Below, piece after piece: positions 2,533-40,918 of a stretch of 52,465 nucleotides of DNA. The notes below the pieces were generated by a model. The model was given only the letters and a program-made list of their open reading frames with translations. It searched no databases and was not told where the DNA came from. Source of the DNA: Bacteroidales bacterium (GTDB lineage: Bacteria; Bacteroidota; Bacteroidia; Bacteroidales; GWF2-35-48); assembly GCA_036171035.1 (NCBI GenBank), contig JAVHQG010000140.1, positions 1 to 52,465 of the forward strand, given 5' to 3'. Position 1 is the stretch's first letter, and every line of letters begins with the position of its first letter. The translations under genes were made by a program, and so were the position numbers.

Positions 2533-3282
2533 TTATTTTTTTCTAATCAGATCAAGAATTCCATTTATAAACGTAAGTGGGTGCATTGGATTTCCAGGTA
2601 CATAAAGATCGATAGAATATTTCTCCAAAAAGCTTCTGTTTAGTGCAGGGCTGCTAGAAAAAATTCCTCCACTGATTGCATCAACACCGGCTAAAACGAT
2701 TATTTTAGGATGTGGTGTGGCATCGTAACAGGTTTGCACTGGTATTGCCATATTTTCGGTTATCGGTCCCGTAATCACAATTCCATCTGCATGACGTGGC
2801 GATGCAACAAATTCAACACCAAATCGGCTCATGTCGAAATTTACATTATTGGTTGCACCTAGTTCCATCTCACAACTGCCATCGCCACCTGCTGAAATCT
2901 GACGTAATTTTAATGAACCACAAAACATACTATGAATTTCTTTTCGAATCAAATCAGCATTTAGTGTAATCGGGTTATCTGTGCCTTCAGAAATTATTAA
3001 ATCATTCCGATTGTTTGCAGCAATTTTATAATCTTTTGTGAAATTAATTTTTGTTGGAAAACATCTAGCACAAGCTCCGCAAAATGTGCATTTACCTAAA
3101 TCAATCCGCACGGGATTTAATAAAATTGCATCTGTTGGGCAAGTATCAATTAATTTAGATTCATCAACTTTTTTGTTGCTGATTACAGGTCGTCCTCGAA
3201 AAATTCCGGGTGCTTCAACCTTTGTAACATCAGGAATGAACTGCTTTCCCTGATGATATAATATTTTTATAGTATTTAACAT
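2533..3282 (-). CDS. NuoB/HycG/HyfI-like small subunit fused to an N-terminal ferredoxin-like segment; proximal-cluster cysteines mostly missing
   Basis: FVASPRHADGIVITGPIT and VPGNPMHP align to the NuoB/HycG core. The N-terminus carries CPTDAI...CTFCGACARCFP. It is the last gene of the tightly packed operon. Confidence 0.85.
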   Translation of the reverse strand: MLNTIKILYHQGKQFIPDVTKVEAPGIFRGRPVISNKKVDESKLIDTCPTDAILLNPVRIDLGKCTFCGACARCFPTKINFTKDYKIAANNRNDLIISEGTDNPITLNADLIRKEIHSMFCGSLKLRQISAGGDGSCEMELGATNNVNFDMSRFGVEFVASPRHADGIVITGPITENMAIPVQTCYDATPHPKIIVLAGVDAISGGIFSSSPALNRSFLEKYSIDLYVPGNPMHPLTFINGILDLIRKK

Positions 3283-3293
3283 TTTTTATTTTT

Positions 3294-4793
3294 TTATAAA
3301 TCGTGTCCGCAATATGATAAATTGAAACTTTTATTACAAATTGGGAAATCTGAAATTTCATTATTTCTTACAGCCAAAGCCAATGCCAACCAATTGTGAA
3401 ATGAGGGATCTTTTATTTTATATATTACAAAATCGCCTTTTGCATCAGTAATTGCACAATGGCATATTTCTCCGCGCCAGCCTTCCACAAGCGAGAGTGT
3501 GAATGCGTTTGGTTTGGGAGAATTCAAATCCGGAATATTTGTATTTTGCTCAGGAATATTTTCTAATAATTTGCGAATGTAACCTATTGATTGGCGTATT
3601 TCATGTTTGCGAATTTGTATGCGAGAGTAAACATCTCCATGTCGTTTGATAATGGGGTTATGATATATTTCAGGATACAGGCTGAAAGCATGTGTGAGTC
3701 GAATATCTCTCCGAAGCCCGCTTGCTCTGGCAGCCATCCCTACAGTTCCTGTGAAAATGGCATTTTCAAGTGAAAATATTCCGGTACGTTCAAATCGCGA
3801 AATTGCACTGGGCAGTTTAAATAACTCAATGCTCATTTCATTGAAATCTGGTTCAAATGCCTGCAAAACTATTTTTAATTTTTCAGCCAATGCCGGTGTG
3901 AATTCAAAAGGAGTATATCCAGGATAAATCAGGGTTTTAGCTAATCTGTTGCCACACCATTCTTGAGAGAAGTTAATTATTGGTGTTCGCAATCGTCCGA
4001 AAACAGAGGCTCCTAATTGATATGCAATGTCGGCACATGCTGCGCTTAAATCTCCCGTGTGTACAGCTATTCGTTCTAGTTCAAGCGCCAGTGTACGTTG
4101 GAAATCAACTCCACGTGCTACATGGAATCCGTTCAGACTTTCCCATAGATTTGAAAAGGCGGTAGTGTGTCCTACAACTGTGTCGCCAGCAATATTCTCG
4201 GCTAATGTGGTGCGTTCTTTTAATTTTTTCTTTTCTAAAAATAATTGTTCAAGACCCCTGTGTTGATAGCCTAGCTGTATTTCAAGATGTAAAATTTGTT
4301 CTCCATTACAAATAAATCTAAAATGTCCCGGCTCAATGATTCCTGCATGAATAGGACCAACACCTACCTCATGTAATTCTTCACTTTCAATTTTAAAAAA
4401 AGGATAATTTGCAATTGTTTTTGATTGATCTGCACGATTGAATGCGTAGCGTACAGGTTTTAGCCAAGTGTGTCCTGTGAAATCTATTCCAAAATTTTCA
4501 TGAATTTCGCGTTCAAATTTTTCAAACCCTAAGTGTTTAATTGTTAATGATTGTAGTTTGTCGGTATTGCATGTAAGGCATGAAGAAACATAGATTTCGT
4601 TTGAATCATCATCGGCAATGCAACAAATAAGTTTTATTTTATCATTTATTTTATATCCAAAATAATTCACACAGTGTCTCTCATCGTGATCGTGAATTAA
4701 TTCTGATTGTAGATCAAAAAAAGAGCGATAAGCTACTTCGGGAATATCAGAAACAGGGATGGTTTGGTTATTTTTTATTTTAATGTAGTCCAT
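3294..4793 (-). CDS. NuoC-NuoD / HycE / HyfG-like large subunit homologue lacking the [NiFe] cysteine ligands
   Basis: GPIHAGIIEPGHFRFICNGEQILHLEIQLGYQHRGLEQ is the hallmark of the group-4 hydrogenase/NuoD family. The N-terminal ~130 aa are NuoC/HycE-N-like. The L1 position reads ENIAGDTVVGH and the C-terminus reads NLSYCGHDL. Confidence 0.85.
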   Translation of the reverse strand: MDYIKIKNNQTIPVSDIPEVAYRSFFDLQSELIHDHDERHCVNYFGYKINDKIKLICCIADDDSNEIYVSSCLTCNTDKLQSLTIKHLGFEKFEREIHENFGIDFTGHTWLKPVRYAFNRADQSKTIANYPFFKIESEELHEVGVGPIHAGIIEPGHFRFICNGEQILHLEIQLGYQHRGLEQLFLEKKKLKERTTLAENIAGDTVVGHTTAFSNLWESLNGFHVARGVDFQRTLALELERIAVHTGDLSAACADIAYQLGASVFGRLRTPIINFSQEWCGNRLAKTLIYPGYTPFEFTPALAEKLKIVLQAFEPDFNEMSIELFKLPSAISRFERTGIFSLENAIFTGTVGMAARASGLRRDIRLTHAFSLYPEIYHNPIIKRHGDVYSRIQIRKHEIRQSIGYIRKLLENIPEQNTNIPDLNSPKPNAFTLSLVEGWRGEICHCAITDAKGDFVIYKIKDPSFHNWLALALAVRNNEISDFPICNKSFNLSYCGHDL

Positions 4794-4794
4794 A

Positions 4795-6225
4795 TTATTT
4801 AGGTAAAAGCATTGTACTTTCGTTGATTAAATTTATTAATTCGACAGGAGGATTTAACCCCAAATAAACTGCGGTTGCCAGTAAAACAAATTGTGTAAGC
4901 GATTCCCATGGGTTGATTTTAATATGTTCTTTCGTCTCTATGACGTGTGTTGATGGGACAAACAGCATTTTCAAGATATTCTTTCCTAAAGACCACATAA
5001 TAAGTGTTAATAGTATTACAACGAAAACCAAAGCTACAATTTGATGTGCTTGGAACATGCCGCGGAAGATAAGAAATTCGCTAACAAACAAACCAGATGG
5101 TGGCATGGCTGTAATGCTTATCAAAACAAACAACATTACAATTGCCCCAACAATATTTTTACTAAAATAATTCCCTGTTTTGCTCAATATGTATGTATGA
5201 AAGGTTCGATGTACCTGATCTATTTGATAAAACACACTTGCTTTTACAAATGAATGTAAAACCATGTGGAGAATTGCTGCAAAGTAGCCAATCCCTCCGC
5301 TTGCAAGTCCAAGAGCTGTAAGTCCCATGTGTTCTAAACTTGAATATGCAAACATTCTTTTTAAATGAGAAACTTTTAGAATATAAACAACTGAAACAAA
5401 TATAGATAGTAATCCGCACCACAGCAGCATTTGGTTCATCCAAGGCAGAATGCTGGTGTTTGCCATTAATGAATATGTGCGAAAAATTGAAACAAATCCA
5501 ACGTTCATTAAGGTGGTTGAGATGAACGCACTGATAGGTGGTGGAGCTACAGTATGAGCATCTACGGCAATTGTGTGCATTGGGAAAAGTCCCATTTTAG
5601 TACTAAATCCAACAATCATAAAAAGGAAGGCAAGCTTTAACCAAAAAGGATTTACATTTTTCAAATGATGTGGGATGTCTAAAATATTTAGATTTGAGGA
5701 GCCTGATTCTTGAAGAGCTTTGCTTAAAAAAATGATCCCAACAAAAGCAAAGGTGATACCGATGGAACAAATAAATACATATTTCCAAGTGGCTTCAAGG
5801 GAAAGCTGTGTTCGCTCGTGGTATATTAATATTGCAACGCTCAATGTAGTTGCTTCAATAAATACCCACAAAACCCCGATGTGATTAGCAAGATAAACAC
5901 ATGTCATGGCAACAATAAGCATGATGAGGGCAGTAAAATAAAGACTCTGATTTCGATCGCTATCTTTACGATATTGCAGATAGATGTAACTGTGATAAAC
6001 GGTTGTGTAACTTAAAATTGTGAGGACACAAAGGAAAATGATCCCCAATGAATCGTAAGTAAAAAACCTAAATTCAGTTTGATGTAAGTGTTGAAAACCG
6101 TAAATCGTAATTGCTGTTTGTAATAATAAAAAAGACAAAAGCAATATTTTTCGTAGAGCAATATTTTTGTTAATAACTGTTCCTGCGGCAAGTAAAATAG
6201 CAATAATAATATAATAACTAAACAT
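4795..6225 (-). CDS. HyfF/NuoN/NuoM-like antiporter-type membrane subunit
   Basis: Polytopic 476-aa protein with LFPMHTIAVDAHTVAPPPISAFISTTLMNVG, matching the conserved (W)LP.AH..AP.P(V/I)SA motif of Mrp/NuoLMN-type subunits. It lies 1 nt from the next gene. Confidence 0.85.
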   Translation of the reverse strand: MFSYYIIIAILLAAGTVINKNIALRKILLLSFLLLQTAITIYGFQHLHQTEFRFFTYDSLGIIFLCVLTILSYTTVYHSYIYLQYRKDSDRNQSLYFTALIMLIVAMTCVYLANHIGVLWVFIEATTLSVAILIYHERTQLSLEATWKYVFICSIGITFAFVGIIFLSKALQESGSSNLNILDIPHHLKNVNPFWLKLAFLFMIVGFSTKMGLFPMHTIAVDAHTVAPPPISAFISTTLMNVGFVSIFRTYSLMANTSILPWMNQMLLWCGLLSIFVSVVYILKVSHLKRMFAYSSLEHMGLTALGLASGGIGYFAAILHMVLHSFVKASVFYQIDQVHRTFHTYILSKTGNYFSKNIVGAIVMLFVLISITAMPPSGLFVSEFLIFRGMFQAHQIVALVFVVILLTLIMWSLGKNILKMLFVPSTHVIETKEHIKINPWESLTQFVLLATAVYLGLNPPVELINLINESTMLLPK

Positions 6226-6229
6226 ATAA

Positions 6230-6859
6230 TTAATCTTTTAAATTTGTTAAATTATCAACACTCATCTCTTCAAATGTATTTCCGATTCTGTTTATGAAAA
6301 TCCCTAAAACAAGCACACTCACAAAAATATCGAGCATAATTCCAACATTCACAAGCTGTGTCATTTCCGTACCTACAGCCAACGACAACACAAAAACGCC
6401 ATTTTCAATAATTAAATATCCCATGATATGTGTTACAACTTTTTTCCGTGTAACAATAAAATAAAGTCCTGTAAATAGAGAGGAGAGAGCAACTATAAAA
6501 AATATTTTTTCTATTGTAGTATCTTTAATTGCGTTTGTTAAAAGGATGGTTGCTACAATAATTAAGGTCGTTATTATTAACGATACAAAGTTTGGCAAAT
6601 AGGGTTCGGCCTCTCGGGTTATTTTGTTTTTCTTAATCACATAATTTAAAAACAGTGGAACTGCCAATGATTTAAAAACAATGGTTTCCAATAAAATTAA
6701 AATTAAATTTAATGTATCAATCTCTTGCAATCGGAGCAGTACGACAAAGAACAGTAAAATACCCTGTAGTGAAAGCACCCGAATAAAAGTCAACATTCTG
6801 TTTGCGATTGCCACATAAAACAAGGTAATTAGAAATGTAATAAGTATTACGTTTATCAT
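6230..6859 (-). CDS. HyfE-like small membrane subunit (NuoK-related C-terminal half)
   Basis: 209 aa and all hydrophobic. GYLIIENGVFVLSLAVGTEMTQLVNVGIMLDIFVSVLVLGIF resembles the HyfE/MbhE/NuoK-type helix pair. Its operon position matches hyfE. Confidence 0.7.
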   Translation of the reverse strand: MINVILITFLITLFYVAIANRMLTFIRVLSLQGILLFFVVLLRLQEIDTLNLILILLETIVFKSLAVPLFLNYVIKKNKITREAEPYLPNFVSLIITTLIIVATILLTNAIKDTTIEKIFFIVALSSLFTGLYFIVTRKKVVTHIMGYLIIENGVFVLSLAVGTEMTQLVNVGIMLDIFVSVLVLGIFINRIGNTFEEMSVDNLTNLKD

Positions 6860-6880
6860 TTTTGTGTTTTTATGAAATTA

Positions 6881-7786
6881 TTAAACAAATTTATCTAGTA
6901 TTAACAGCACACCAAAGAAAATCAATAAACTAACTGAAGTAAGCGTGAAAATAAATTGAGCATTGTGGCTCATGCGGAAGCGAGCCATGAATGATTCAAT
7001 CAACCCAATGACTATTGCCATTGAAAATTGAATCACAAAGAATATTGGAATACTGTATTCATAAGGTACCATTCCAATAAATAAGTTTACGACCAATGTT
7101 CCGTATATAGCAAATTTTAAACAGCCTGCAGCAAAAATTAAACCTAGGTCAAACCCACTATTATCTAAAATCATGACTTCGTGTATCATGGTTAATTCTA
7201 AATGGGTTTTAGGGTCGTCAATAGGCATTCGGCTATTTTCAATCATGGTAATCATGATTAATACAAATGTTGCCAAGGTAGTAAGAGCATACGTGATATA
7301 TGAACCCACATGAAGTGAATAAAACATTTCCTGAAAAGATGTATGTCCTGTGAGCAGTGCAAGCGAACCCATGAGAATAAAAAAAGCAGGTTCAGCAAAC
7401 ATCGAATACAATGCTTCGCGACTGGCACCCATTCCTTCAAAGCTGCTCCCTGTGTCCATTGCAGCAATAATGCTGAAAAATTTACCTAAAGCCAGCACAT
7501 AAGCAAAGAAAATAAAATCGCCATTAAAACTAATTACCCCCTTAGATTTCCCAAATGGGATTACAAGCATTGCCATCACTATGGATGCAAAATAAATTGT
7601 GGGTGCAATTTTAAAAATAATGCTTGTGGTTTCGCTATATACAGCTCCCTTTTTAAAGAGCCGCCATACATCCTTTAATGGCTGAAATATACCCGGCCCT
7701 TTACGACCCGATGCAATGCTTTTTGTCCGGATAATGATACCCGTGAAAAATGTTGCCGCAATTAAAATCAGAATAAAACTCAACAT
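6881..7786 (-). CDS. NuoH/HycD/HyfC-like membrane subunit
   Basis: 301 aa, about 8 TM helices. The N-terminal GRKGPGIFQPLKDVWRLFKKG motif is typical of NuoH/HycD. Confidence 0.85.
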   Translation of the reverse strand: MLSFILILIAATFFTGIIIRTKSIASGRKGPGIFQPLKDVWRLFKKGAVYSETTSIIFKIAPTIYFASIVMAMLVIPFGKSKGVISFNGDFIFFAYVLALGKFFSIIAAMDTGSSFEGMGASREALYSMFAEPAFFILMGSLALLTGHTSFQEMFYSLHVGSYITYALTTLATFVLIMITMIENSRMPIDDPKTHLELTMIHEVMILDNSGFDLGLIFAAGCLKFAIYGTLVVNLFIGMVPYEYSIPIFFVIQFSMAIVIGLIESFMARFRMSHNAQFIFTLTSVSLLIFFGVLLILDKFV

Positions 7787-7788
7787 AA

Positions 7789-9813
7789 CTAAAGTTGTTT
7801 TAAAAACTCAATAAAATAAATAACTCCATCAATTATTATAGGGATAAAAATTACTGAAATAATAAAGATTACACCGTATAAAATATAAAATTGAAGTTTC
7901 CCTTGACTTAAAAACATAAATTTGCTAAACCCTGCTCTAGTCGAATGCAATGAATTGTCTATAAACCATTTTTCAATTTTATCGTAAGGACGTGTTTCAT
8001 AATGTGCATCTTTTGGGAAAATTCCTTCAATATCTTTTTCTTTTTTAATAAATAATAATACGGAACTAAATAATTTACTGTAGGTTCTGACAAATGAACT
8101 TGCCGTATATTGCAGCTTTGGAGTAAGGGCAACATAGCCACATCCCCACGTTGAGGCAACTTCGATAGTACGTTTTTTTGTTATGAATTTCCGCACATAA
8201 AAAATTAAAATTATTAATAAAATAAAACCCCATGCAGCCCAACTAATTTTTTGTAATATTTCAAAAAGAGGATTCACAATTTGGAGATTTGATTTTTGAG
8301 GAATCAATGTAAATAGACTGACAGGCATTAAAAGCATATTCACAAATATTTTGGGAAACAACCCGATTGCAATAATAAAAAGTGCAATAATATATAGTGG
8401 GATGCGCTGCATAAATGGTGCTTCTTTTATTTCGTGATGAAAAGGATGTCTGGGATTGCCTAAAAATACTGTTCCAAAAGCCTTGGTAAAACAAAGCATG
8501 GCTAATCCTCCAATCATTACCAGACTAACTACAATAGACACAATGGCAATTGTCGGAATAAGAGTGGCATTTTGAATCCAGTAAAAAAGTCCACTATAAA
8601 TAATAAATTCAGAAATAAAACCATTAAATGGAGGAATCCCACAAATAGCAATGGCTGCAATTAAAAAAAGAAAAGCAGTTTGTGGCATTTTTCTTATCAG
8701 TCCACCCATTTGTTCTATGTTTAACGTGTGAATTGCCTGATAAACAATCCCTGCTGCGTAAAATAAAAGAGATTTGAAAAGTGCGTGGTTCAGCACATGC
8801 AATAATGCGCCTGCAAATCCTAATATGATTAGAACCTGATTGGCCGAACCCATGCCAATGCACCCAATTCCAATTCCAATTCCAATAATTCCAATATTTT
8901 CAATGCTGTGATAGGCTAAAAGTTTTTTTAAATTATGTTGCACAATTGCCAACATCACCCCATATAAGCCTGAAATTACTGAAAAGGTTAATATCATGTA
9001 TCCAACTTTTGTGTAATCAGTATGAAGTATTAATATCATGCGCAGAATTCCATAAATACCTATCTTAATTAATACGCCCGACATAATACCTGAAATGTGA
9101 GCAGGCGCAGCAGGGTGCGCATAAGGCAACCATGTGTGAAAGGGAACAAAGCCAGCTTTTATTGCAAATCCTATAAAGAAAAATAAAAACAATGCAAATT
9201 CAGAAGCACCATTATGTTGTGAGGAGTATAGCGCAATAGCATTAAAATCATAACTGCCGGTTTTATAGGCAACATAAATAAATCCGAGTGATAAAAAAAC
9301 AATAGAGATGTGTGCTTGTATCAGATAATTTAATCCTGCTTTGATTGTTCCTGTTTTTTCATGCTCAAAAATTACTGCAAAAAACGCTGAAACCGCCATA
9401 ACTTCCCATGCTACAAGAAACGCAATGCTATTTTGAATAACACAAATACTAAGCAGTGCAGCATGTGTTAATATCATCACAATGTAATGAATTGTTAAAT
9501 TATTTTTTTGATCTTTATATGCTTTCATGTAGGTCAAACCGTAGAAACTACCAGTAATAAAAACCAAATTAAAAATCATGATAAACCAACCGGCCAACGA
9601 ATCAATTTGTATGCGGATATAGCCTGTAATCAGACTTCCGGGAAATGTATAGTTAAATATTTCACCAGAGAATGATTGAATGGCAAAATAACTTGAAATG
9701 CCTGCCTCTAAAAGAATCGTAGAAAACAAAATAATATTCTTCCACTTTAAATTTATAAAGGGAATTGCAATGATTGCAAGGAAAGGGATTAATATGTACG
9801 CTTTTAACAGCAA
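7789..9813 (-). CDS. HyfB/HycC/NuoL-like antiporter-type subunit (copy 2)
   Basis: 674 aa. It has FHTWLPYAHPAAPAHISGIMSGVLIKIGIYG and a C-terminal extension with STWGCGYVA, as in HyfB/HycC. Confidence 0.85.
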   Translation of the reverse strand: MLLKAYILIPFLAIIAIPFINLKWKNIILFSTILLEAGISSYFAIQSFSGEIFNYTFPGSLITGYIRIQIDSLAGWFIMIFNLVFITGSFYGLTYMKAYKDQKNNLTIHYIVMILTHAALLSICVIQNSIAFLVAWEVMAVSAFFAVIFEHEKTGTIKAGLNYLIQAHISIVFLSLGFIYVAYKTGSYDFNAIALYSSQHNGASEFALFLFFFIGFAIKAGFVPFHTWLPYAHPAAPAHISGIMSGVLIKIGIYGILRMILILHTDYTKVGYMILTFSVISGLYGVMLAIVQHNLKKLLAYHSIENIGIIGIGIGIGCIGMGSANQVLIILGFAGALLHVLNHALFKSLLFYAAGIVYQAIHTLNIEQMGGLIRKMPQTAFLFLIAAIAICGIPPFNGFISEFIIYSGLFYWIQNATLIPTIAIVSIVVSLVMIGGLAMLCFTKAFGTVFLGNPRHPFHHEIKEAPFMQRIPLYIIALFIIAIGLFPKIFVNMLLMPVSLFTLIPQKSNLQIVNPLFEILQKISWAAWGFILLIILIFYVRKFITKKRTIEVASTWGCGYVALTPKLQYTASSFVRTYSKLFSSVLLFIKKEKDIEGIFPKDAHYETRPYDKIEKWFIDNSLHSTRAGFSKFMFLSQGKLQFYILYGVIFIISVIFIPIIIDGVIYFIEFLKQL

Positions 9814-9814
9814 A

Positions 9815-11824
9815 TTAAAGGATATTTAAAATCGTTAATAAAATGATGCTAATGATAAAAATAATACCATATAAAACATAAGATTGTGTTCTGCCATTTT
9901 GGAAAAATAAAAAATAATTTGCCAGATACACGATTCTGTTTGTGATTTTCCCGATAATGCGCTGTTCAAAGAAATCAAGGTAGTGAGACGCATATTTTCT
10001 CTGTTGGGGAAACACTTCATTTTTTTTGAGTTCTTGAAATTGTTTTTTCTCTAACAATAAAAAATTGAAAATTTTCCCTAAAGGTTTTGAGAATGATTTA
10101 CCGGAATATTGCATTCTGTTGTTTGGTGCAACATACCCACATCCCCACGTGGTATTTATCGTTGCAGGTTTGTTTTTAATGGCAATTGCACGAATGCCCC
10201 AGATTAAAATGATTAATAAAACAAATATTGCAGAATAAATGCTGATATGAGAAATGTTTTGAGAATAAGTTAAAAAGGGAGAAACATCCATGTGTGCTGT
10301 AGCCGGAATTAGGTTACTTATTAAGTTACCTAGCGGATTCAGATAGAATTGCGGAAAAAATGAAACACTTAACATTACAGCAATAATAACGTATTGCGGA
10401 TAAATCATTGTGGAAGAAACTTCATGTGGCTGATGATGAAATTTTTCATGTTCGTTGCCCAAAAATATTGCACTAAACGATTTCGTAAATGTAAGAATAG
10501 AAATACCTCCAATGATACTTAATCCCGCAAACGAAGTTACCAAAAGGCTGGTCATACTAATATTGTTTGACTTCATCCCTTCTAACAATCCACTGTAAAT
10601 AATAAATTCTGACACAAATCCATTAAAAGGTGGAATTCCACCAATAGCAATGGCTCCAATTAAAAATAGCAGTGCAGTTTTTGGCATAATTTTAATTAAT
10701 CCGCCTAATTTTTCCATATCGCGTGTATGCGTTTGTTGATATACAGAGCCTGCTGCAAAAAAGAGTAATGATTTGAATAAAGAATGATTTAATACATGCA
10801 GTAAGGCACCACCAAATCCTAGATAAAACAATACGTTTGAGTCTGTTCCAACGCCAATAAGTCCCAAGCCAATACCTATCCCAATTATGCCAATATTTTC
10901 AATGGTACAATAGGCTAGCATACGTTTAAAATCACGATGAATTGCTGCATTGAATATTCCATAAAGTCCGGTAAATAAAGAAATACTTACAACAATTTCA
11001 CCTAGTAGGGTATAATCTGATTGAAGAAAAGAAATGATTCGGATAATTCCATAAATACCGAGTTTTACGATTACGCCCGACATCACACCCGATACGTGAG
11101 AGGGAGCAGCAGGGTGCGCATGTGGCAACCAACTGTGTAGGGGCACAAATCCGGCCTTCAGTCCAAATCCAATAAAGAAAATTAGAAATAACCAAATGTT
11201 GCTGTTTGTATGAAAAAATGTTCCAATGGACTCAAAGTTTAATGAGCCTGTTTGGAAATAAACCCAAATAAATCCTATCGTTAAAAACACAACGCTGATG
11301 TGCATTTGCACAAGGTAATTCATCCCTGCTTTGAGTGTGCGTGGATTGTTGTGATCGAATATTACCAGCAACATGGACGAAAGCGACATGATTTCCCAAG
11401 CAATAAGGAATGCAAAACCTTGTTGTATTATGCAAACCCACACCATTGAGAGATGAAACAAAATAAACCAGATAAAGTGCAGGGTTATTTTTGCACTTGG
11501 CTCTGAATATGCTTTTAAATAACCTTTTCCATAGATAATACCGGTGAGCGATGTGAAATTGATGATGAGAATAAACCATGCTGATAAGCTATCAATACGA
11601 AGAGGAATGTTGCCCCAAAAATTGCCTGCATATAAGACTAAGTCAATAGGCTTTCCGGTTATTGCGTGGACGGCAATAATGCTTGTGGCAATAACATTAA
11701 TCACAACTGCAAATATTGCTACAAGTGATTTATATTTTAATGGTATAATTACTAAAAATAAAATTGAAACAAGTGTAAATATTAACGTTATATTGAGTAA
11801 AAAATCGTGTTCTATCATCTGCAT
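9815..11824 (-). CDS. HyfB/HycC/NuoL-like antiporter-type subunit (copy 1, first gene of the operon)
   Basis: 669 aa. It has LHSWLPHAHPAAPSHVSGVMSGVIVKLGIYG and a C-terminal TTWGCGYVA. It is a clear paralogue of the adjacent 674-aa protein. Confidence 0.85.
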   Translation of the reverse strand: MQMIEHDFLLNITLIFTLVSILFLVIIPLKYKSLVAIFAVVINVIATSIIAVHAITGKPIDLVLYAGNFWGNIPLRIDSLSAWFILIINFTSLTGIIYGKGYLKAYSEPSAKITLHFIWFILFHLSMVWVCIIQQGFAFLIAWEIMSLSSMLLVIFDHNNPRTLKAGMNYLVQMHISVVFLTIGFIWVYFQTGSLNFESIGTFFHTNSNIWLFLIFFIGFGLKAGFVPLHSWLPHAHPAAPSHVSGVMSGVIVKLGIYGIIRIISFLQSDYTLLGEIVVSISLFTGLYGIFNAAIHRDFKRMLAYCTIENIGIIGIGIGLGLIGVGTDSNVLFYLGFGGALLHVLNHSLFKSLLFFAAGSVYQQTHTRDMEKLGGLIKIMPKTALLFLIGAIAIGGIPPFNGFVSEFIIYSGLLEGMKSNNISMTSLLVTSFAGLSIIGGISILTFTKSFSAIFLGNEHEKFHHQPHEVSSTMIYPQYVIIAVMLSVSFFPQFYLNPLGNLISNLIPATAHMDVSPFLTYSQNISHISIYSAIFVLLIILIWGIRAIAIKNKPATINTTWGCGYVAPNNRMQYSGKSFSKPLGKIFNFLLLEKKQFQELKKNEVFPQQRKYASHYLDFFEQRIIGKITNRIVYLANYFLFFQNGRTQSYVLYGIIFIISIILLTILNIL

Positions 11825-11856: not shown

Positions 11857-11864
11857 CAAAGGTA
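11857..11864 (-). promoter_or_regulatory. Candidate -7 promoter box for the Hyf-like operon
   Basis: The minus strand reads TACCTTTG, matching the Bacteroidetes primary-sigma -7 consensus TAnnTTTG, about 30 nt upstream of the ATG at 11824. Such octamers occur by chance in AT-rich DNA. Confidence 0.3.
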
Positions 11865-11963: not shown

Positions 11964-12662
11964 ATGAAAAATATTTTTCCAATTGAAAAATTTACTTCTA
12001 CCAGTGATTCCATTTTCAAAAATATTTCGGATGAAGTTAGAAAAAAATTAGAGAATCAAATGATTGAAAGAACATATAAAAAAGGTCAAAGTATTTTTTT
12101 GGAAGGTTCTTTTCCGGCAGGAATTTTTTATTTGAAAGAAGGGCTTGTAAAAAAGTATAAAACAGATAATGTCGGCAAAGAGCATATCTTATATCTTTGT
12201 TCTTCCGGTGAATTACTGGGTTATTCGGCTGTGTTGTGTAACGAGACATATCCTGATTCTGCTTCTGCGCTGGAGACTTCCATACTGGGATTTATTTCAA
12301 ACGAATTGTTTTTAAAAATCATACATGGATCGAATGAATTAATGTTGAATTTATTATCGAGTCTGAGCCATGAATTTAGTGTAATGGTTAACAGCGTTAC
12401 TGTGTTTACACACATGACTGTGCGTGAAAGGCTCGCATTGATTTTATTAATTTTGTCGGCAACCTTTAAAAAAAGATCAACAACAAAATACGTAGAAATT
12501 GTTTTGTCTCGGAATGATCTGGCAAGTATGGTTGGTACAGCAACAGAAACGCTTGTTAGGTTGCTGCAGGCATTCAAACAAGAGGGAATTATTGAAATAA
12601 AATCAAAAAATATTATTGTGCTGAAGCCAAAAGAATTAATTATGCTGTCGAAGTTTTATTGA
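11964..12662 (+). CDS. Crp/Fnr-family transcriptional regulator
   Basis: An N-terminal cNMP-binding-like beta-roll (IFLEGSFPAGIFYLKEGLVKKY...GELLGYSA) is followed by a C-terminal HTH (SRNDLASMVGTATETLVRLLQAFKQEGII). There is no N-terminal Cys cluster. Confidence 0.85.
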   Translation: MKNIFPIEKFTSTSDSIFKNISDEVRKKLENQMIERTYKKGQSIFLEGSFPAGIFYLKEGLVKKYKTDNVGKEHILYLCSSGELLGYSAVLCNETYPDSASALETSILGFISNELFLKIIHGSNELMLNLLSSLSHEFSVMVNSVTVFTHMTVRERLALILLILSATFKKRSTTKYVEIVLSRNDLASMVGTATETLVRLLQAFKQEGIIEIKSKNIIVLKPKELIMLSKFY

Positions 12663-16836: not shown

Positions 16837-19800
16837 CTAGATTGAGACAGGAACAATTTCAGTTACCACTTCAGGCGAAACTTCTACGGCTGCCTCATGA
16901 TGCGTTGCCTTAGTTGATTCGGTCTGTTCATCATTTTTTGCACTTTTAATCATAAAATAAAGCCGATTGTGGACATTTACTTCGCTGCTTCCTGAATCAA
17001 AGTCGAGAAAAAGTAAACTCATATTTGGGAAAAGTGTTTTGATTTTTTTCTCAACACCTTTCGAAATAATATGATTTGCAATACATCCAAAAGGTTGCAG
17101 ACTCACTACATTCTGTACGCCCATTTCTGCAAAAGAAGATATTTCGGCAGGGATCAGCCAGCCTTCTCCAAATTGGTTTGCAAGGCTCATTATTTTTTCT
17201 GCTTTAACAGCTTCATGAAGGATATTGTCATGAGGATAATTATATCTGAATCCTGTCATTATTTTTTCTGTCTGTCGAATGTGATAGTTTGCATATTTTT
17301 CAATGAAATAGGCATACATGCTCATCCCTTTTCGTTCAATATTTAATTTTTTATTGACACGTACGTTCACAAATCCCTGAATCATGAAATCAATTAATGG
17401 AGGGACAACAACTTCAATGCCTTGTTCAATTAGCCAGTTCACGACATTCATGTTGCCAAAAGCATTGTATTTGACATAAATTTCACCAACAATTCCAACA
17501 CGTGGTACATTGATGTCTTTTACTTCAATTTTATTAAATTCAATTACAGCATCTTTCAGCAATGTTCGTACCTTACTTGTATTTCTTGTTTTAATATATT
17601 CCTGAACCTCTGAAATATATTTGTCGAGCATCTTTTTTGAAGTCCCTTTGATTTTTTCTTTAGTAACAGTTGTATAATACATTTTTGCAAGACCGTCAGC
17701 AAAAAGGGTACTCATTAAAGTTGCTTTCATTACTTTTTTCCAATCGAGCTCAAATCCGGGTTGAGCGTTGATAAGACCGTCGCCAGAGGCAATTGAAATA
17801 ACAGGAATATTATCAAATCCTGCTGCCACCATTGCTTTTTTTATTAACGAAATATAATTGGTTGCTCTGCATTGTCCACCTGTTTGTGTGATACCTACAA
17901 CTGTGTTTTTTAAATCATATTTTCCTGATTTTAATGCACTCACAATATTTCCTACAATTAAGGTTGCAGGATAGCAGATTTCATTGTTTGCATATTTTAA
18001 TCCTTCTGTAACTGCTGCATTATCAGGAATTGGAAGATTTACATAATTATAATCCAGAATAGTAAAAAGGCTTGGAATAAATGGCGAATAAATATCTGAA
18101 AAATGAGGACCCAGTATGGTTTTCTTGACATCATTTTTTGTGTAAACGGGTGTGGTTTTTCTTTTCTTTTCAACCACTGGTGCTTTACTCTTTAGTTTAA
18201 GAGATTCTATAAAAGACCGTAATCGCAGTCTTACAGAGCCCGTGCTGGATATTTCGTCTATTTTTATCAGTGTATGATTTTTCCCTTTGCTTCTTAATAT
18301 TTCTGTAGTTTCATCAATCAGATACGCATCAGGACCACAGCCGAAGGAATTAAGTTGTACGAAATGAATATTAGCATTTTTTTGGTTAGCAACCCATTGT
18401 GCTGCTTTAAGAATCCGATTAGGATAGGACCACTGTGTGACGGTGTGAATCTCGTCAAATGTGCTGCCACCTTCTTCATACGCAATACTTTCATTGATTA
18501 CATCTGCGCCAAGGTCTGTAAGGATTTGAGCTGTTTTATGCTGAATTAATGGATCTGCATGATAAGGTCTCCCTGATAGTAACACAACAAGTTTGTTATT
18601 CAAATATGCTTTTTCGATAATTTCGTAAGCTTTATTTCTTAAGGTAAGTTGGAATTTTTTTTTCTCACTGATTGCACTAATAAAGGCTTTGTTAAAAGTG
18701 TTTTTGCTCACACCGAGAGGTTTTAAATATTCAAAACAAGCTTTTTTTAGAAGGATTTCGTCATTAAAAACAATGGTGGGTGCATCTAATGGAATACCAT
18801 ATTTTTCTTTTGGATTTATAGCACTTTTTAATACTTCGGAATAGCTAGATACAACAGGGCAATTATAGCTATTCACAGCATTTTTTTGCTCTTTGCTTTC
18901 AATCATTACCATTGGAAAGAATATTCTGTCAACCTTTTTTTCAATAAGGTTTATAATATGTCCATGTGCCAATTTTGCAGGGAAGCATATATTGTCTGAC
19001 ATCACAGAGCCAAGCCCTTTTTCATAAATATCTACTGTTGATGTATCTGATAATTTGACATTAATCCCACTTTCAGTCAGTAGTGTATTCCAAAATGGGA
19101 AATTTTCGTACATGTTTAAAATCCGTGGAATCCCAATTGTGAGCATGGGTTTATCGGTAACGCTTGTTTTTCTGTTAAAGAGAAGGTCGTATTTAAAATC
19201 ATAAATATTAAATCCTTTTTCTTTGGCACTTCCTTTATTTGTAAATACTTTTTCGCAATTATTGCCTGAAAAATATTTGTTCCCGCTTGGAAATTTAAAG
19301 CGTGTTACGGCACAATTATTTTCGCAAGCACTACATCGTACTATGTTTGTTTCATAATTGTTAATATTCTCAAGGTAATCGAGACCAACAAAAGAAGATT
19401 CATTATAGTTCTTATTATACATTGTAGTGGCATGCAAAGCCGCTCCATAAGCACCCATAAGTTCAGGAATATCGGAGCAACTTACTTTTTTCCCTGTTAA
19501 TACTTCTAACGCTCTGTGTACGGAAGGGTTTTTAAATGTCCCACCTTGCACAACAATATTATCGCCAAGTACAGACATATCTTTTATTTTAAGAACCTTG
19601 AAAAGGCAGTTCTTAACCACAGAGTAAGAGAGTCCTGCGGAAATATCTTCAACTTTAGCCCCTTCGCGTAAAGACTGTTTTACTTTGGAATTCATAAATA
19701 CAGTGCAGCGTGTACCTAGCTCGCATGGACGTTGAGCATCGCAGGCAACTTGAGCAAAATCCGATACTTTGTAGTTTAATGTATTGGCAAATCCTTCAAT

Positions 19801-21177
19801 AAATGAACCACAGCCGGAGGAGCAGGCTTCGTTGATTTCAAGATTATTGATGCTGTTGTTGTTTATAAAAATTGCTTTCATATCCTGACCACCAATGTCA
19901 AGCACAAAAGATACTTTTTTGTCAAATTTTTTCGCAGCAGTGTAATGAGCAATGGTTTCAACAATACCATGATCGATTCCAAAAGCAGCTTTAATAAGGT
20001 CTTCACCGTATCCGGTTACCGTACATTGAGCAATTTTTATTTTTTTTCTATTTTCAAAAAGTAGGGCGGCAAATTCTTTTAATCCATGTGTTACAGCATC
20101 AAGAGGATTGCCCTTGTTATTGTTGTAATGGCTAAAAATGATTCGTCCTTTTTCATCAGTTACAATTATTTTTGTTGTTGTTGAGCCTGAGTCAATGCCT
20201 ATAAAACAGATGTCAGACGTTAATTTATCAATTGCAATACGTTCTACTTTGTTTGCTGTATTTTTTTCTCTCCATTCGGCTAGTTCTTCTTTGCTTTTGA
20301 AAAGTGGATCGAGTCTGTAAGAATAATTTGAAACAACTTTTTGTTTATCAATGAGCAAATCCTGCATTTCGAGTAAAGTCATTGAGAGTCTTTCGCTGTT
20401 ATCTGCCAGAGCGGCTCCCATTGCAGGGATAAGCTCAGGACGTAAAGGAACCACAATGTCTTGTTCTGATATTTTAAGTGTGTGCATAAATGATAGCCGT
20501 AAGCTTTTGATAAAACTAAACGGACCACCCGTGAACATTACTTTTGGTGCAATATCAAAACCTCGGGCAAGTGTATTCATTGATTGCACAGCTACCGCAT
20601 GAAAAACTGATGCTGCAATATTGGCTTTTGAGATTTTTCTTGAGATTAAGTTTTGCACATCTGTTTTTGCAAACACACCGCAACGTGAAGCAATGGGATA
20701 TAGCTGTTCTGCTTTTGCAGCATATGAGTCAAGCTCTTCTACATGCACATTTAACAATGTTGCCATTTGATCAATAAATGCACCTGTGCCACCTGCGCAA
20801 CTCCCGTTCATTCTAATGTCCGGTTGTTTATCGCTATAGAAAAATATCATTTTGGAGTCTTCGCCACCAAGGTCAATAAGAGTTTTTACATGTGGATATT
20901 TTAACCGCACAACTTCTGCAGAAGCAACAACTTCCTGAATGAAGGGAATATCGGTTTTTTCAGCGATACCAAGTCCTGCGGAACCAGTAATCATCAGGCT
21001 TATATGGGCATTGCCAAGCGATTCCTGTGCTTCGCTAAAAATAGATGAAAGTGTTTTGACGATTTCTGTATTATGCCTTCTGTATATTGAAAATATTATT
21101 TTTGATTTTTCATCAATGAATACAACTTTTGCTGTTGTTGATCCTACATCTATTCCTACTTTGTAATTTTTTGTCAT
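16837..21177 (-). CDS. Acyl-CoA dehydratase activase-related fusion protein: two BcrAD/BadFG/HgdC-type ATPase domains plus DUF2229/HgdB-like domains
   Basis: Two ASKHA ATPase modules (VGIDVGSTTAKVVF and IGIDSGSTTTKIIV). Each has the cluster-bridging Cys contexts (NGSCAGGTGAF / ASRCGVFA and NEACSSGCGSF / GTRCTVFM). The C-terminal two thirds carry dehydratase-component-like motifs (NICFPAKLAHGH, NSFGCGPDAY, QTGGQCRATNY, LQPFGCIANH). Confidence 0.85.
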   Translation of the reverse strand: MTKNYKVGIDVGSTTAKVVFIDEKSKIIFSIYRRHNTEIVKTLSSIFSEAQESLGNAHISLMITGSAGLGIAEKTDIPFIQEVVASAEVVRLKYPHVKTLIDLGGEDSKMIFFYSDKQPDIRMNGSCAGGTGAFIDQMATLLNVHVEELDSYAAKAEQLYPIASRCGVFAKTDVQNLISRKISKANIAASVFHAVAVQSMNTLARGFDIAPKVMFTGGPFSFIKSLRLSFMHTLKISEQDIVVPLRPELIPAMGAALADNSERLSMTLLEMQDLLIDKQKVVSNYSYRLDPLFKSKEELAEWREKNTANKVERIAIDKLTSDICFIGIDSGSTTTKIIVTDEKGRIIFSHYNNNKGNPLDAVTHGLKEFAALLFENRKKIKIAQCTVTGYGEDLIKAAFGIDHGIVETIAHYTAAKKFDKKVSFVLDIGGQDMKAIFINNNSINNLEINEACSSGCGSFIEGFANTLNYKVSDFAQVACDAQRPCELGTRCTVFMNSKVKQSLREGAKVEDISAGLSYSVVKNCLFKVLKIKDMSVLGDNIVVQGGTFKNPSVHRALEVLTGKKVSCSDIPELMGAYGAALHATTMYNKNYNESSFVGLDYLENINNYETNIVRCSACENNCAVTRFKFPSGNKYFSGNNCEKVFTNKGSAKEKGFNIYDFKYDLLFNRKTSVTDKPMLTIGIPRILNMYENFPFWNTLLTESGINVKLSDTSTVDIYEKGLGSVMSDNICFPAKLAHGHIINLIEKKVDRIFFPMVMIESKEQKNAVNSYNCPVVSSYSEVLKSAINPKEKYGIPLDAPTIVFNDEILLKKACFEYLKPLGVSKNTFNKAFISAISEKKKFQLTLRNKAYEIIEKAYLNNKLVVLLSGRPYHADPLIQHKTAQILTDLGADVINESIAYEEGGSTFDEIHTVTQWSYPNRILKAAQWVANQKNANIHFVQLNSFGCGPDAYLIDETTEILRSKGKNHTLIKIDEISSTGSVRLRLRSFIESLKLKSKAPVVEKKRKTTPVYTKNDVKKTILGPHFSDIYSPFIPSLFTILDYNYVNLPIPDNAAVTEGLKYANNEICYPATLIVGNIVSALKSGKYDLKNTVVGITQTGGQCRATNYISLIKKAMVAAGFDNIPVISIASGDGLINAQPGFELDWKKVMKATLMSTLFADGLAKMYYTTVTKEKIKGTSKKMLDKYISEVQEYIKTRNTSKVRTLLKDAVIEFNKIEVKDINVPRVGIVGEIYVKYNAFGNMNVVNWLIEQGIEVVVPPLIDFMIQGFVNVRVNKKLNIERKGMSMYAYFIEKYANYHIRQTEKIMTGFRYNYPHDNILHEAVKAEKIMSLANQFGEGWLIPAEISSFAEMGVQNVVSLQPFGCIANHIISKGVEKKIKTLFPNMSLLFLDFDSGSSEVNVHNRLYFMIKSAKNDEQTESTKATHHEAAVEVSPEVVTEIVPVSI

Positions 21178-21224: not shown

Positions 21225-21845
21225 TTAAATTTTTTTCATGAAATTAATAATCATTCCAGAGATGATTTTCTTCCGTTCTTGTATAAATTTCTGAAAGATT
21301 TTTTCATTATTATTGAAAAGATATTCGTCTAAAAGTGGCTTTGAAAGGAATGGAAAAACGCACATTCCTATAAGATCAATTACAAAATGTTCAATAGGGA
21401 AATTGCGAAGAATTCCTGCCTGTTTTTCCATTTCAATTTGGATTAATAGTTTATCTAATTTAATTCCTTTTGTGTTAATGATATTAAATACAGATTGGGG
21501 ATCACGGGACATCTCGTGTACTATTAAATTTGGTAAAAGTGGGTTTTCTGATAAAACATTCAGATAGTTTTCTACAAACATTTCTACCTTTTGAAACATT
21601 GGAATAGGCATCTCAATGATTTCGTTGAATTTTGGAGTAATTCTGGTTAGCGATTCAGCAAAAATGATTATAAAAAGTTTTTCTTTATTGCGAAAATAAT
21701 AGTGAAGCGAAGTACGGCAAATGTGTGCTTCATCTGCAATTTCTTGCATGGTTGCCCCGTCCATCCCTTTACGAAAAAAAACAGCTTTTGCTGCCTCTCT
21801 GATTTTTATTTCAACATCTTGTTCCCCTAGTGTTTCTATATCCAT
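21225..21845 (-). CDS. TetR/AcrR-family transcriptional regulator
   Basis: N-terminal HTH: AAKAVFFRKGMDGATMQEIADEAHICRTSLHYYFRNKEKLF. 206 aa. It lies 47 nt upstream of the activase-fusion gene on the same strand. Confidence 0.85.
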   Translation of the reverse strand: MDIETLGEQDVEIKIREAAKAVFFRKGMDGATMQEIADEAHICRTSLHYYFRNKEKLFIIIFAESLTRITPKFNEIIEMPIPMFQKVEMFVENYLNVLSENPLLPNLIVHEMSRDPQSVFNIINTKGIKLDKLLIQIEMEKQAGILRNFPIEHFVIDLIGMCVFPFLSKPLLDEYLFNNNEKIFQKFIQERKKIISGMIINFMKKI

Positions 21846-39949: not shown

Positions 39950-40918
39950 ATGGATAAATTCTCCAAAAATCAAACAATTACAAGCACTGAATTTCAATTT
40001 CCAAAACAAAAAAGTTTTTATAAAGGGAAAGTGCGGGATGTATATAATATTGATGATAAATATTTGGTAATGGTGGTTAGCGATCGTATTTCTGCATTCG
40101 ATGTGGTTTTGCCAAAAGGGATACCATATAAAGGACAAGTGCTAAATCAGATTGCTTCAAAGTTTTTAGATGCAACTACAGATATTGTTCCTAATTGGAA
40201 AATTTCAGTCCCTGATCCAATGGTCACTGTGGGGCATTTATGTAGGCCTTTTCCGGTTGAAATGATTATTCGAGGTTACCTGACAGGGAGTTCGTGGAGG
40301 TCGTACAAGGATGGGAAACGTGAGATTTGTGGTATAAAAATACCCGATGGCATGAAAGAGCATCAACGTTTTGCACAGCCTATAATTACACCTTCAACTA
40401 AGGCTGAACAAGGCATGCACGATGAAGATATTTCTAAAGAAGAAATAATTAACAGAGGGCTTATTTCTTTGCAAGATTATGAAATGCTTGAACTTTATAC
40501 TCAAAAACTTTTTGAGAGAGGCTCTGTGATGGCTAAAGAAAAAGGTTTGATACTGGTTGATACGAAATATGAATTTGGAAAAAAAGATGAAGAAATTTAT
40601 TTGATTGATGAGATTCACACACCAGACTCTTCGCGATATTTTTATTTAGATGGATATGAAGAGCGGCAGCAAAATAATGAACAACAAAAACAACTTTCCA
40701 AAGAATTTGTGCGTGAATGGTTGATGAGTAATGGATTTCAAGGTAAGCAAGGGCAGACATTGCCTGAAATCACAGACGCATATGCGATGAGTGTTTCAGA
40801 ACGATATATTGAGCTTTATGAAAACATTACAGGTGAAAAATTTATTAAAGCAAATATTTCAGATGTTCAAACACGAATCAAAAATAATATTGATAAATTT
40901 CTGACAGGAGTACATTAA
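39950..40918 (+). CDS. purC: Phosphoribosylaminoimidazole-succinocarboxamide (SAICAR) synthase
   Basis: [32 protein letters not shown] and [11 protein letters not shown]...[15 protein letters not shown] are present. Confidence 0.93.

Follow-up and report, generated by a model that had tools for sequence, protein, structure and literature searches.

The stretch of DNA analysed here, hereafter the window, comprises the entire 52,465 nucleotides (nt) of contig JAVHQG010000140.1 from a Bacteroidales bacterium, and between positions 2533 and 11824 it carries seven intact open reading frames (ORFs) on the minus strand, separated by gaps of 1, 2, 21, 4, 1 and 11 nt. An initial annotation of this DNA had described a minus-strand, seven-gene operon with gaps of 1-21 nt encoding an energy-converting hydrogenase-related (Ehr) complex, and the ORF coordinates agree with that layout. 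Comparison with Pfam and NCBIfam likewise bears out its gene order and family assignments: two HyfB-like genes are followed by HyfC/NuoH-like, HyfE-like and HyfF-like genes, and then by genes for the large subunit (NuoC+NuoD/HycE-like) and the small subunit (NuoB/HycG-like). The products, for which we use Ehr names throughout, are as follows (lengths in amino acids, aa).

9815..11824, minus strand: EhrA1, HyfB/NuoL-like antiporter-like subunit, 669 aa (Pfam Proton_antipo_M, 1e-56; HyfB model, 508 bits)
7789..9813, minus strand: EhrA2, second HyfB-like antiporter-like subunit, 674 aa, with a TTG start as listed (Pfam, 2e-53; HyfB model, 486 bits)
6881..7786, minus strand: EhrB, HyfC/HycD/NuoH-like subunit joining head and membrane arm, 301 aa (NADHdh, 9e-35)
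6230..6859, minus strand: EhrC, HyfE-like small membrane subunit, 209 aa (NCBIfam HyfE, 1e-20, 74 bits; weak Oxidored_q2, NuoK)
4795..6225, minus strand: EhrD, HyfF/NuoM-N-like antiporter-like subunit, 476 aa (Pfam, 1e-44; hydrogenase-4 subunit F, 232 bits)
3294..4793, minus strand: EhrL, fusion of NuoC-like and NuoD/HycE-like domains lacking the [NiFe] ligands, 499 aa (Complex1_30kDa and Complex1_49kDa)
2533..3282, minus strand: EhrS, NuoI/HyfH remnant (residues ~1-100) fused to a NuoB/HycG domain (~122-249), 249 aa

Proton_antipo_M was thus detected three times (E-values of 1e-44 to 1e-56), and each of the two head proteins combines more than one domain: Complex1_30kDa and Complex1_49kDa lie in a single ORF, and the domain structure of EhrS is based on matches to Oxidored_q6 (8e-18) and, weakly, Fer4 in Pfam and to NuoB, NuoI, HycF and HyfH in NCBIfam. 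The top NCBIfam names are hydrogenase-4 subunits B, B, E and F together with NuoH, NuoD and NuoB, with every score below the curated cut-off (HyfB, 508 and 486 versus 667 bits; HyfF, 232 versus 543; HyfE, 74 versus 136; NuoD, 143 versus 360; NuoB, 84 versus 116; NuoH, 58 versus 305). Since these scores fall far short of the cut-offs, the operon proteins are, on this measure, not equivalogs of either Hyf or Nuo subunits.

Ehr complexes have been known as a bioinformatic category since 2005-2013. They are defined in the literature as relatives of group 4 [NiFe]-hydrogenases and complex I that lack the Ni/Fe cysteines and possess antiporter-like subunits, with no function assigned, and they have been reported in Geobacter, Nitrospira, ammonia-oxidising archaea, bacteria of the candidate phyla radiation, Margulisbacteria and relatives of Cyanobacteria. 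Fusions of NuoC with NuoD and of NuoI with NuoB have been published for Ehr, and the HydDB classifier was trained to exclude Ehr as a non-hydrogenase. The window operon shows the same set of features. Its hydrogenase-like large subunit is devoid of the CxxC ligands (the four slots read Ala, Asp, Ser and Gly), its partners are the HyfB/HyfF-like (NuoL-like), NuoH-like and HyfE-like subunits also present in the Margulisbacteria and Geobacter complexes, and it carries both fusions, PF00329 with PF00346 in one ORF and Fer4/NuoI with PF01058 in another. The Ehr locus of Geobacter sulfurreducens (GSU0739-45) likewise consists of seven genes, whose products include EhrA-1, the HyfE-like EhrC, EhrL and EhrS, although we compared the two loci by subunit names and gene number only. 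The identification as an Ehr-type complex in the initial annotation therefore agrees with the published definition, gene content and both fusions, and the complex can be assigned securely, from its sequence, to a Bacteroidota member of the Ehr group with a stand-alone EhrA1-A2-B-C-D-L-S composition.

This form of Ehr is very common. More than 8000 relatives of the large subunit are present in the database, and the top 120 are all at least 70% identical to it; those with a named source come from metagenome-assembled genomes (MAGs) of Bacteroidales or other Bacteroidota, where they carry the label 'Ni,Fe-hydrogenase III large subunit' or 'NADH-quinone oxidoreductase subunit C'. When one genome per species was scanned, 587 of the 600 candidate stretches listed encode a relative, so that a close relative occurs in at least 587 species genomes, mostly of Bacteroidota. 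The best 80 loci belong nearly all to this phylum and include Prolixibacteraceae, Paludibacter, Lentimicrobiaceae, Rikenellaceae, Chitinophagales, Saprospiraceae and Flavobacteriales; lineages of Draconibacterium, Mangrovibacterium and Mariniphaga also have relatives. To survey gene neighbourhoods, ORFs in the flanks of these 80 loci (up to 10 kb) were clustered all-against-all. The seven genes co-occur as a cassette, and no other gene family recurs beside them in the 80 loci apart from a Crp-type regulator present in about ten. In particular, no dehydrogenase, HycB-like, NuoEFG-like, hyp or protease gene is recurrent in these flanks; within the window itself, no Hyp, endopeptidase, formate dehydrogenase (FDH), CODH, HycB-like or NuoEFG-like domain was found among ORFs of at least 100 aa, in keeping with the earlier observation that hyp, FDH, CODH and NuoEFG-like neighbours are missing. 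The remaining neighbours look like housekeeping genes, as judged from sequence (ribosomal proteins, EF-Ts, IspG and an RNase Y-like protein). Because no family other than the Crp-type regulator recurs beside the seven genes, the cassette is autonomous, with any maturation or electron-input genes unlinked to it both here and in relatives. The operon differs in this respect from Margulisbacteria Ehr, which has FDH/NuoEF-like genes nearby.

The fate of the hydrogenase active site was examined by reading the ligand slots from residue-level HMMER alignments of the large subunit to HycE, MbhL and Nqo4 and of the small subunit to HycG and MbhJ, with conservation counted over 80 large-subunit and 75 small-subunit relatives. 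The solved chains most similar to EhrL are Escherichia coli HycE (7z0s_E, 6e-33) and Pyrococcus furiosus MbhL (3e-27). The regions of EhrL discussed below are these.

4167..4199, minus strand: former N-terminal Ni motif, ENIAGDTVVGH (residues 199-209), paired with DRVCGICGFAH of HycE
3297..3326, minus strand: former C-terminal Ni motif, FNLSYCGHDL-stop (residues 490-499), paired with LDPCYSC of HycE
4317..4367, minus strand: beta1-beta2 loop region, GVGPIHAGIIEPGHFRF (residues 143-159), paired with PIGPLHVTSDEPGHFRL of HycE; nearly all positions are invariant in the family
4620..4676, minus strand: His40, Cys41, Cys57 and Cys58 in the NuoC-like domain, each present in 79-80 of 80 Bacteroidota relatives

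At the N-terminal motif, 'sdRvCGiCgfaH' of HycE pairs with 'aeNiAGDtvvgH', which places Ala202 and Asp204 in the two cysteine slots and retains His209, as the initial annotation had proposed. Glu199, Gly203, Asp204 and Gly208 are found in all 80 relatives and His209 in 79, and the first cysteine slot is occupied by Ala, Thr, Ser or Val, with Cys in none of the 80. At the C-terminal motif, 'slDPCY(sC)' pairs with 'sfNLSY(CG)', so the third slot holds Ser493 and the fourth Gly496. The earlier reading of this motif, and with it the loss of the first of its cysteines, holds, but the replacement it named was one position off, the alignment giving Ser493 and not Leu. Here too the columns are strongly conserved (Ser493, Tyr494, Gly496 and Asp498 in 79 of 80 relatives, His497 in 76 and Leu499 in 78). 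The stop codon directly follows Leu499, at the end of the mature hydrogenase large subunit, so that EhrL has no protease-cleaved tail; Leu499 occupies the His/Arg position at which hydrogenase large subunits are cleaved. The alignment to Thermus thermophilus Nqo4 further places Gly203 in the slot of the quinone ligand Tyr87.

No relative among the 80 has a cysteine in any of the four [NiFe] slots, and with the ligands missing from the window protein as well, the complex is not expected to produce H2, in agreement with the initial annotation. A true group 4 [NiFe]-hydrogenase with offset ligands could be argued from Cys495, which lies one residue ahead of the fourth slot. This position is variable, with Cys in 48 relatives, Ser in 24 and Ala in 7, so that 31 of the 80 carry Ser or Ala, and the hyp and protease genes such an enzyme would call for are neither present in the window nor recurrent in the surveyed flanks. 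The offset-ligand idea, which the initial annotation had itself raised as a possible refutation, is ruled out by the residue-level alignments together with the conservation across relatives. Nor does the operon look like a decaying relic: each of the seven ORFs is intact, with a length typical of the family, across Bacteroidota orders their products retain 49-78% identity with 20-37% of columns invariant, and frequent frameshifts or stop codons were not seen in the relatives. We consider an offset-ligand hydrogenase or a relic operon extremely improbable.

A misread complex I of the 11-subunit type, or a ferredoxin:menaquinone oxidoreductase of Bacteroidota, is scarcely more credible. Relatives are labelled 'NADH-quinone oxidoreductase subunit C' or 'NADH dehydrogenase subunit', the NuoB, NuoD and NuoH models do match, and the complex shares with complex I an L-shaped set of modules (NuoB, C, D and H, part of NuoI, a K-like and three L/M/N-like subunits) and the residues of the proton path. 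However, the Nuo scores are far below the cut-offs, the membrane subunits are best matched by HyfB, HyfE and HyfF, the slot of the quinone-ligand Tyr reads Gly, three of the four N2 ligands are missing (see below) and with them the N2 cluster, and neither NuoA and NuoJ nor NuoEFG are encoded.

The small subunit has undergone a comparable loss. Its slots for the proximal cluster, aligned to MbhJ and HycG, and a further cluster site are the following.

2872..2883, minus strand: proximal slots 1 and 2, D134-G-S-C137, paired with C-n-g-C of MbhJ and HycG
2680..2682, minus strand: proximal slot 3, D201, paired with the third cluster Cys of MbhJ/HycG
2590..2592, minus strand: proximal slot 4, N231 (PGNP in place of PGCP), paired with the PGCP Cys of MbhJ/HycG/NDUFS7
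3055..3141, minus strand: single [4Fe-4S] site, C48-P49...C65-x2-C68-x2-C71...F75-P76, aligned to motif 2 of NuoI/NdhI

The proximal slots thus read Asp, Cys, Asp and Asn, as stated in the initial annotation, and these residues are strongly conserved: the Asp134 column is conserved to at least 98%, Cys137 is present in 70 of 75 relatives, Asp201 in 74 and Asn231 in all 75. Judged by these columns, the residues that replace the ligands in both head subunits (Asp134, Cys137, Asp201 and Asn231 in EhrS; Asp204, His209, Ser493, Gly496, His497 and Asp498 in EhrL) are conserved and not decayed.

Residues 1-100 of EhrS, which the initial annotation had overlooked, form a ferredoxin remnant derived from NuoI/HyfH/HycF, and the NCBIfam NuoI, HycF and HyfH models match residues 22-100. 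Within it, RIDLGKCTFCGACARCFPTKINFTKDY pairs with motif 2, CxxCxxCxxxCP, of NuoI from E. coli and of NdhI from plants. The first NuoI motif has shrunk to its final Cys-Pro (Cys48-Pro49), located behind 'FRGRPVI', a lead-in of the NuoI type. In two-cluster ferredoxins, the ligands of one cluster are the last Cys of motif 1 plus Cys one to three of motif 2. Cys48, Cys65, Cys68 and Cys71 form exactly this one-cluster ligand set; all four are present in 75 of 75 EhrS relatives and are also invariant over 66 sequences that include distant relatives. The four ligands of the other cluster are gone: motif 1 no longer has its first three Cys, and Phe75 fills the last slot of motif 2; the nearby Cys74 is incidental (4 of 75 relatives). 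By the ferredoxin rule, EhrS is therefore predicted to retain a single [4Fe-4S] cluster. An AlphaFold2 model of EhrS built with 66 sequences has a mean pLDDT of 91.5 and a pTM of 0.88, with both halves predicted confidently as one compact unit. In Foldseek searches with this model only the NuoB half matches solved chains (HycG, MbhJ and NuoB; query TM-score of at most 0.48). The root-mean-square deviation was 1.7 Å for MbhJ (126 columns) and about 2.3 Å for chains of the NuoB type (131 columns). No solved chain among the Foldseek matches spans the fused EhrS, and the sequence alignments of EhrL and EhrS found no solved chain closer than those of FHL or MBH.

Relatives outside Bacteroidota put these losses in context. 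The fusion of a NuoI remnant to NuoB is widespread, occurring in 89 clusters at E <=1e-30 (one representative per 50%-identity cluster). Outside the Bacteroidota family, the nearest small-subunit relatives show 44-51% identity and possess all four proximal Cys; scattered lineages read Asp-x-Asp-(Asn/Ser/Asp/His). One such four-Cys protein, from Wallbacteria (P0128), has relatives in Cloacimonadota, Victivallales (Lentisphaerae), Spirochaetes, Planctomycetes and others, phyla that overlap those named in a published Ehr clade. About one-third of the P0128 relatives retain two complete NuoI motifs and more than one-third have the exact one-cluster remnant, with the proximal motifs intact in nearly all. 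Since the one-cluster relatives with an intact proximal site could be wired only through a cluster adjacent to it, we infer that the retained cluster is the equivalent of N6b, formerly next to the proximal cluster. The Wallbacteria operon stands alone and consists of six genes, A-B-C-D-L-S. Its large subunit, 42% identical overall to EhrL, reads LAESIAGDTCIGH and ends in CNKSFNLSYCGHDL-stop, and so carries the same IAGD..GH and FNLSYCGHDL-stop signatures as the window protein. On the evidence of these alignments, this Ehr lineage is marked by its large-subunit signature, which is conserved from phylum to phylum. Given that this signature is shared and that the proximal Cys are present in the nearest relatives from other phyla, the Bacteroidota complex reads as a further-reduced Ehr, in which the proximal cluster is replaced by a putative pocket of conserved Asp, Cys, Asp and Asn; in lacking three of the four proximal Cys, EhrS of the window differs from the nearest small subunits of other phyla. 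EhrL differs as well, in that the invariant His40/Cys41/Cys57/Cys58 set is missing from the Wallbacteria large subunit and is specific to the Bacteroidota family. It is possible that these residues are an extra metal or cluster site, newly gained in the lineage without the proximal cluster.

Literature searches on Ehr in Bacteroidota (Bacteroidetes) found no description of this complex in the phylum. Provisionally, then, and with the two founding Ehr papers lying outside that search, the Bacteroidota sub-type with its conserved Asp/Cys/Asp/Asn residues, its single retained NuoI-type cluster and its very wide spread as a self-contained cassette appear to be undescribed.

The membrane arm, by comparison with MbhH and HycC, retains the canonical charged residues of antiporter-like subunits, namely Glu on transmembrane helix (TM) 5, Lys on TM7, Lys/His on TM8, His/Lys on TM11 and Glu on TM12. 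In EhrA1 these include Glu144 (TM5), Lys223 (TM7), His230, Lys254, His347/Lys351 and Glu406 (TM12), all of them invariant in 50 relatives; in EhrA2, Glu137, Lys219, His226, Lys250, His343/Lys347 and Glu402 are invariant in 66 relatives; and in EhrD, Glu124, Lys210, His320/His324/Lys328 and Glu383 are invariant in its relatives. EhrC has invariant Glu58 and Glu152, which we take to lie in the membrane. EhrB, for which HycD is the best solved match (7z0s_D, 2e-18), is the most conserved subunit, with a median identity of 78% and 37% of columns invariant; its invariant loop motifs are GRKGPG..QP..D, DTGSSFEGMGASRE and ENSRMPIDDPKTHLEL, and loop motifs are held in common with HycD. Median identities to the remaining window proteins are 70% for the small subunit, 68% for the large subunit (79 relatives) and 68% for the HyfE-like subunit, and fall to 62%, 58% and 49% for the three antiporter-like subunits. 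The higher identity of the HyfC-like, small and large subunits indicates that the head and its NuoH-like membrane socket are under tighter constraint, as far as sequence identity reflects it, than the pumping subunits.

Amongst characterised complexes, FHL (7Z0S) provides the best solved match for the large and NuoH-like subunits, as given above, and the second-best for the small subunit (HycG, 3e-18) and EhrA1 (HycC, 5e-50). The gene order is that of Hyf (B..C..E-F-G-(H)I), and an EPGHFR loop is common to the window complex and FHL. However, the window complex lacks the NiFe ligands and proximal cluster of Hyf and FHL, its counterpart of HyfH is a one-cluster remnant fused to HyfI, HyfA/HycB, FdhF, HycI/HyfK and hyp are missing, and all Hyf models score under their cut-offs. 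The P. furiosus complexes MBS/MBX (6U8Y) and MBH (6CFW) are complex-I-like and built from common modules, and MBS provides a precedent, its hydrogenase-like head having ceased to make H2. MBS and MBH keep a three-cluster wire and Mrp-type small subunits, neither of which the window complex has, and the similarity of the window subunits to 6u8y chains is weak (1e-8 to 1e-13). An MBS/MBX sulfane reductase was rejected as an identity for the window complex, which has one cluster site left and none of the Mrp small subunits, whereas MBS/MBX has an Mrp module and a three-cluster wire, with two clusters in the NuoI-like subunit and one proximal, that leads to a non-NiFe site. None of Mrp, NDH-1MS with CupA and DabAB has a full redox wire, yet all use PF00361 subunits, which sets a precedent for employing such subunits in a non-redox role. 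In contrast to these systems, the window operon encodes no MrpB/C/E/F/G, DabA or CupA and retains the NuoH/NuoB/NuoD head as its most conserved part. A Mrp cation/proton antiporter was likewise rejected, the operon having only A/D-like subunits of that system together with a NuoH/NuoB/NuoCD head.

Taking these features together, we lean towards a H+/cation translocator with a sensing or gating head, a judgement that includes the Ehr identification itself. Since the charged residues of the proton/cation path of complex I, MBH and FHL are all kept, the membrane arm of three antiporter-like subunits with the NuoH-like and HyfE-like subunits would still move ions. The head would be unable to bind a NiFe cofactor and hence to make or split H2. 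From complex I geometry, we estimate the gap between the lone cluster and the old active site at more than 20 Å. The chain of clusters in complex I runs from N6a through N6b and N2 to quinone, and efficient electron transfer between clusters, in complex I as in FHL, is limited to about 14 Å. With the proximal (N2) cluster missing and a gap of the estimated size, electrons would therefore reach neither the old active site nor quinone along the usual wire. What the head would keep is the lone [4Fe-4S] cluster in the NuoI-derived domain, probably the former neighbour of the proximal cluster, and two putative polar pockets, one formed by Asp/Cys/Asp/Asn of EhrS and the other by Asp204, His209, Ser493, His497 and Asp498 of EhrL with its free C-terminus. 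The signal may be protonation or ion occupancy of the acidic/His pocket, the redox state of the lone cluster, or both, and it might pass through the invariant beta1-beta2 loop and the conserved loops of the NuoH-like subunit to the antiporter-like subunits. The outcome would be a regulated translocator, that is, a Mrp-type antiporter or pump with a control head in the style of complex I. The initial annotation had proposed an ion-translocating module with a possibly non-redox input; the retention of the canonical residues speaks for the first part, and the second has to be qualified, as an invariant four-Cys [4Fe-4S] site survives.

Several considerations weigh against a gated translocator. 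The case for ion translocation is made from conserved residues, the grouping of the conserved polar residues into common pockets is putative, and the naming of the lone cluster as N6b-equivalent comes from the ferredoxin ligand rule and evolutionary logic, not from a structure. Plain antiport would need another ion path, given that the Mrp-type small subunits are missing. Moreover, the conserved Fe-S site and head could equally mean catalysis with a partner encoded elsewhere, and for Ehr of other organisms there are published pointers in this direction: Geobacter Ehr subunits are more abundant on formate, and FDH-Ehr complexes have been proposed for Margulisbacteria and Saganbacteria.

These last points lead to a redox-driven ion pump, in which a ferredoxin, flavodoxin or dehydrogenase (such as FDH) encoded elsewhere docks on the NuoI-derived domain, the lone cluster cycles single electrons to an acceptor or a new metal site, for instance the His40/Cys41/Cys57/Cys58 set or the Asp/His pocket, and this cycle drives the membrane arm. 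We judge this less probable than not by some way, though a serious competitor. The invariant four-Cys cluster site, a head conserved as in real enzymes, and the formate response and FDH-Ehr proposals just mentioned are consistent with it, and the Bacteroidota-specific His/Cys/Cys/Cys residues could provide the new cofactor site. Set against this are the missing proximal cluster, with an estimated distance beyond the limit for efficient transfer, and the finding that no dehydrogenase, HycB-like or NuoEFG-like gene is recurrent in the 80 loci or present in the window. In addition, three antiporter-like subunits imply a large driving force, for which a single low-potential one-electron centre is unlikely to suffice.

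A further reading assigns non-redox chemistry to the head. In its general form, which we regard as doubtful, the head has been rebuilt as a ligand or metal site, with the residues of the two putative pockets, the free C-terminus and the Bacteroidota-specific His/Cys/Cys/Cys set as candidates, a non-redox event there (CO2/bicarbonate conversion or cation binding) drives ion movement or is driven by it, and the lone cluster would act as a redox switch. In its catalytic form, slightly more doubtful still, the pockets bind a metal or small molecule, an example being vectorial CO2 hydration coupled to ion flow as in NDH-1MS/CupA and DabAB, where CO2 hydration is driven by antiporter-like subunits. 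In favour, the replacement residues are conserved and not random, and the large-subunit signature is kept across phyla. A SulP/STAS transporter next to the Crp regulator in one lineage could also be cited, but this neighbour is limited to one closely related lineage. Pfam and NCBIfam scans of the operon detected no carbonic-anhydrase-like, DabA or CupA domain, and the pocket residues match no metal-site pattern that can be tested; a catalytic pocket is purely a conjecture.

Whichever of these mechanisms applies, the Bacteroidota form deserves attention as a self-contained and very common complex, found in at least 587 species genomes, that is also the most stripped-down Ehr, lacking the NiFe site as well as the proximal cluster and left with a single isolated [4Fe-4S] cluster. 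Should such a reduced complex still be functional, the core function of Ehr would be independent of electron delivery to the old active site, which would narrow the possible mechanisms for all Ehr complexes and bears on how the head is coupled to ion movement in complex-I-type machines. It thereby sharpens the question of what Ehr does without answering it, and points to tractable hosts. For annotation, these genes should be excluded from hydrogenase and complex I counts in metabolic reconstructions of Bacteroidota MAGs.

Two variations on the operon were observed in the survey. In a Draconibacterium MAG (L046:12398-17401), a second membrane set of HyfB-, HyfC-, HyfE- and HyfF-like genes directly follows a complete seven-gene Ehr operon; its products are 54-71% identical to the window proteins and are not accompanied by a large or small subunit. 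This set could be a paralogue lacking the head or else an artefact of assembly. Bacteroidota-type operons were also present in MAGs labelled Acidobacteriota (L026) and Omnitrophica (L080), with large subunits 69% and 64% identical to EhrL, which suggests mis-binning or horizontal transfer.

The gene that precedes the operon is transcribed divergently from it.

11964..12662, plus strand: Crp-family regulator (Pfam cNMP_binding and HTH_Crp_2)

A Crp-type homologue occupies the same divergent position in about ten related loci, mostly of Prolixibacteraceae, and at L083:1946-2650 and L084:1943-2647, and it is possible but unproven that the Crp-family protein regulates the operon. Oxygen sensing of the Fnr type was ruled out for this protein, as the N-terminal Cys cluster is missing. 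The SulP/STAS anion transporter gene referred to above adjoins the homologous regulator gene in that one lineage. A candidate promoter element of the Bacteroidetes type, TACCTTTG (TAnnTTTG; minus strand, 11857-11864), lies some 32 nt ahead of the first gene's ATG and was rejected because the motif occurs at chance frequency in the AT-rich window (90 seen versus 89 expected).

The window has a G+C content of 33% and encodes a protein with a type IX secretion system (T9SS) sorting domain, both of which are indicative of Bacteroidota. Elsewhere in it, a 527-aa ORF (40915-42498, minus strand) combines an N-terminal Rhomboid protease with radical SAM and Radical_SAM_C domains, an unusual fusion. 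A 1446-aa protein (16837-21177, minus strand) contains two BcrAD/BadFG ATPase stretches and a DUF2229 'CoA enzyme activase' domain, and its gene adjoins one for a TetR-family regulator (21225-21845). Finally, two large TPR-repeat proteins are encoded at 42647-45049 (plus strand) and 45708-48236 (minus strand), terminating in a SpoIIE/PP2C phosphatase domain in one case and a CHAT (caspase-like) domain in the other.

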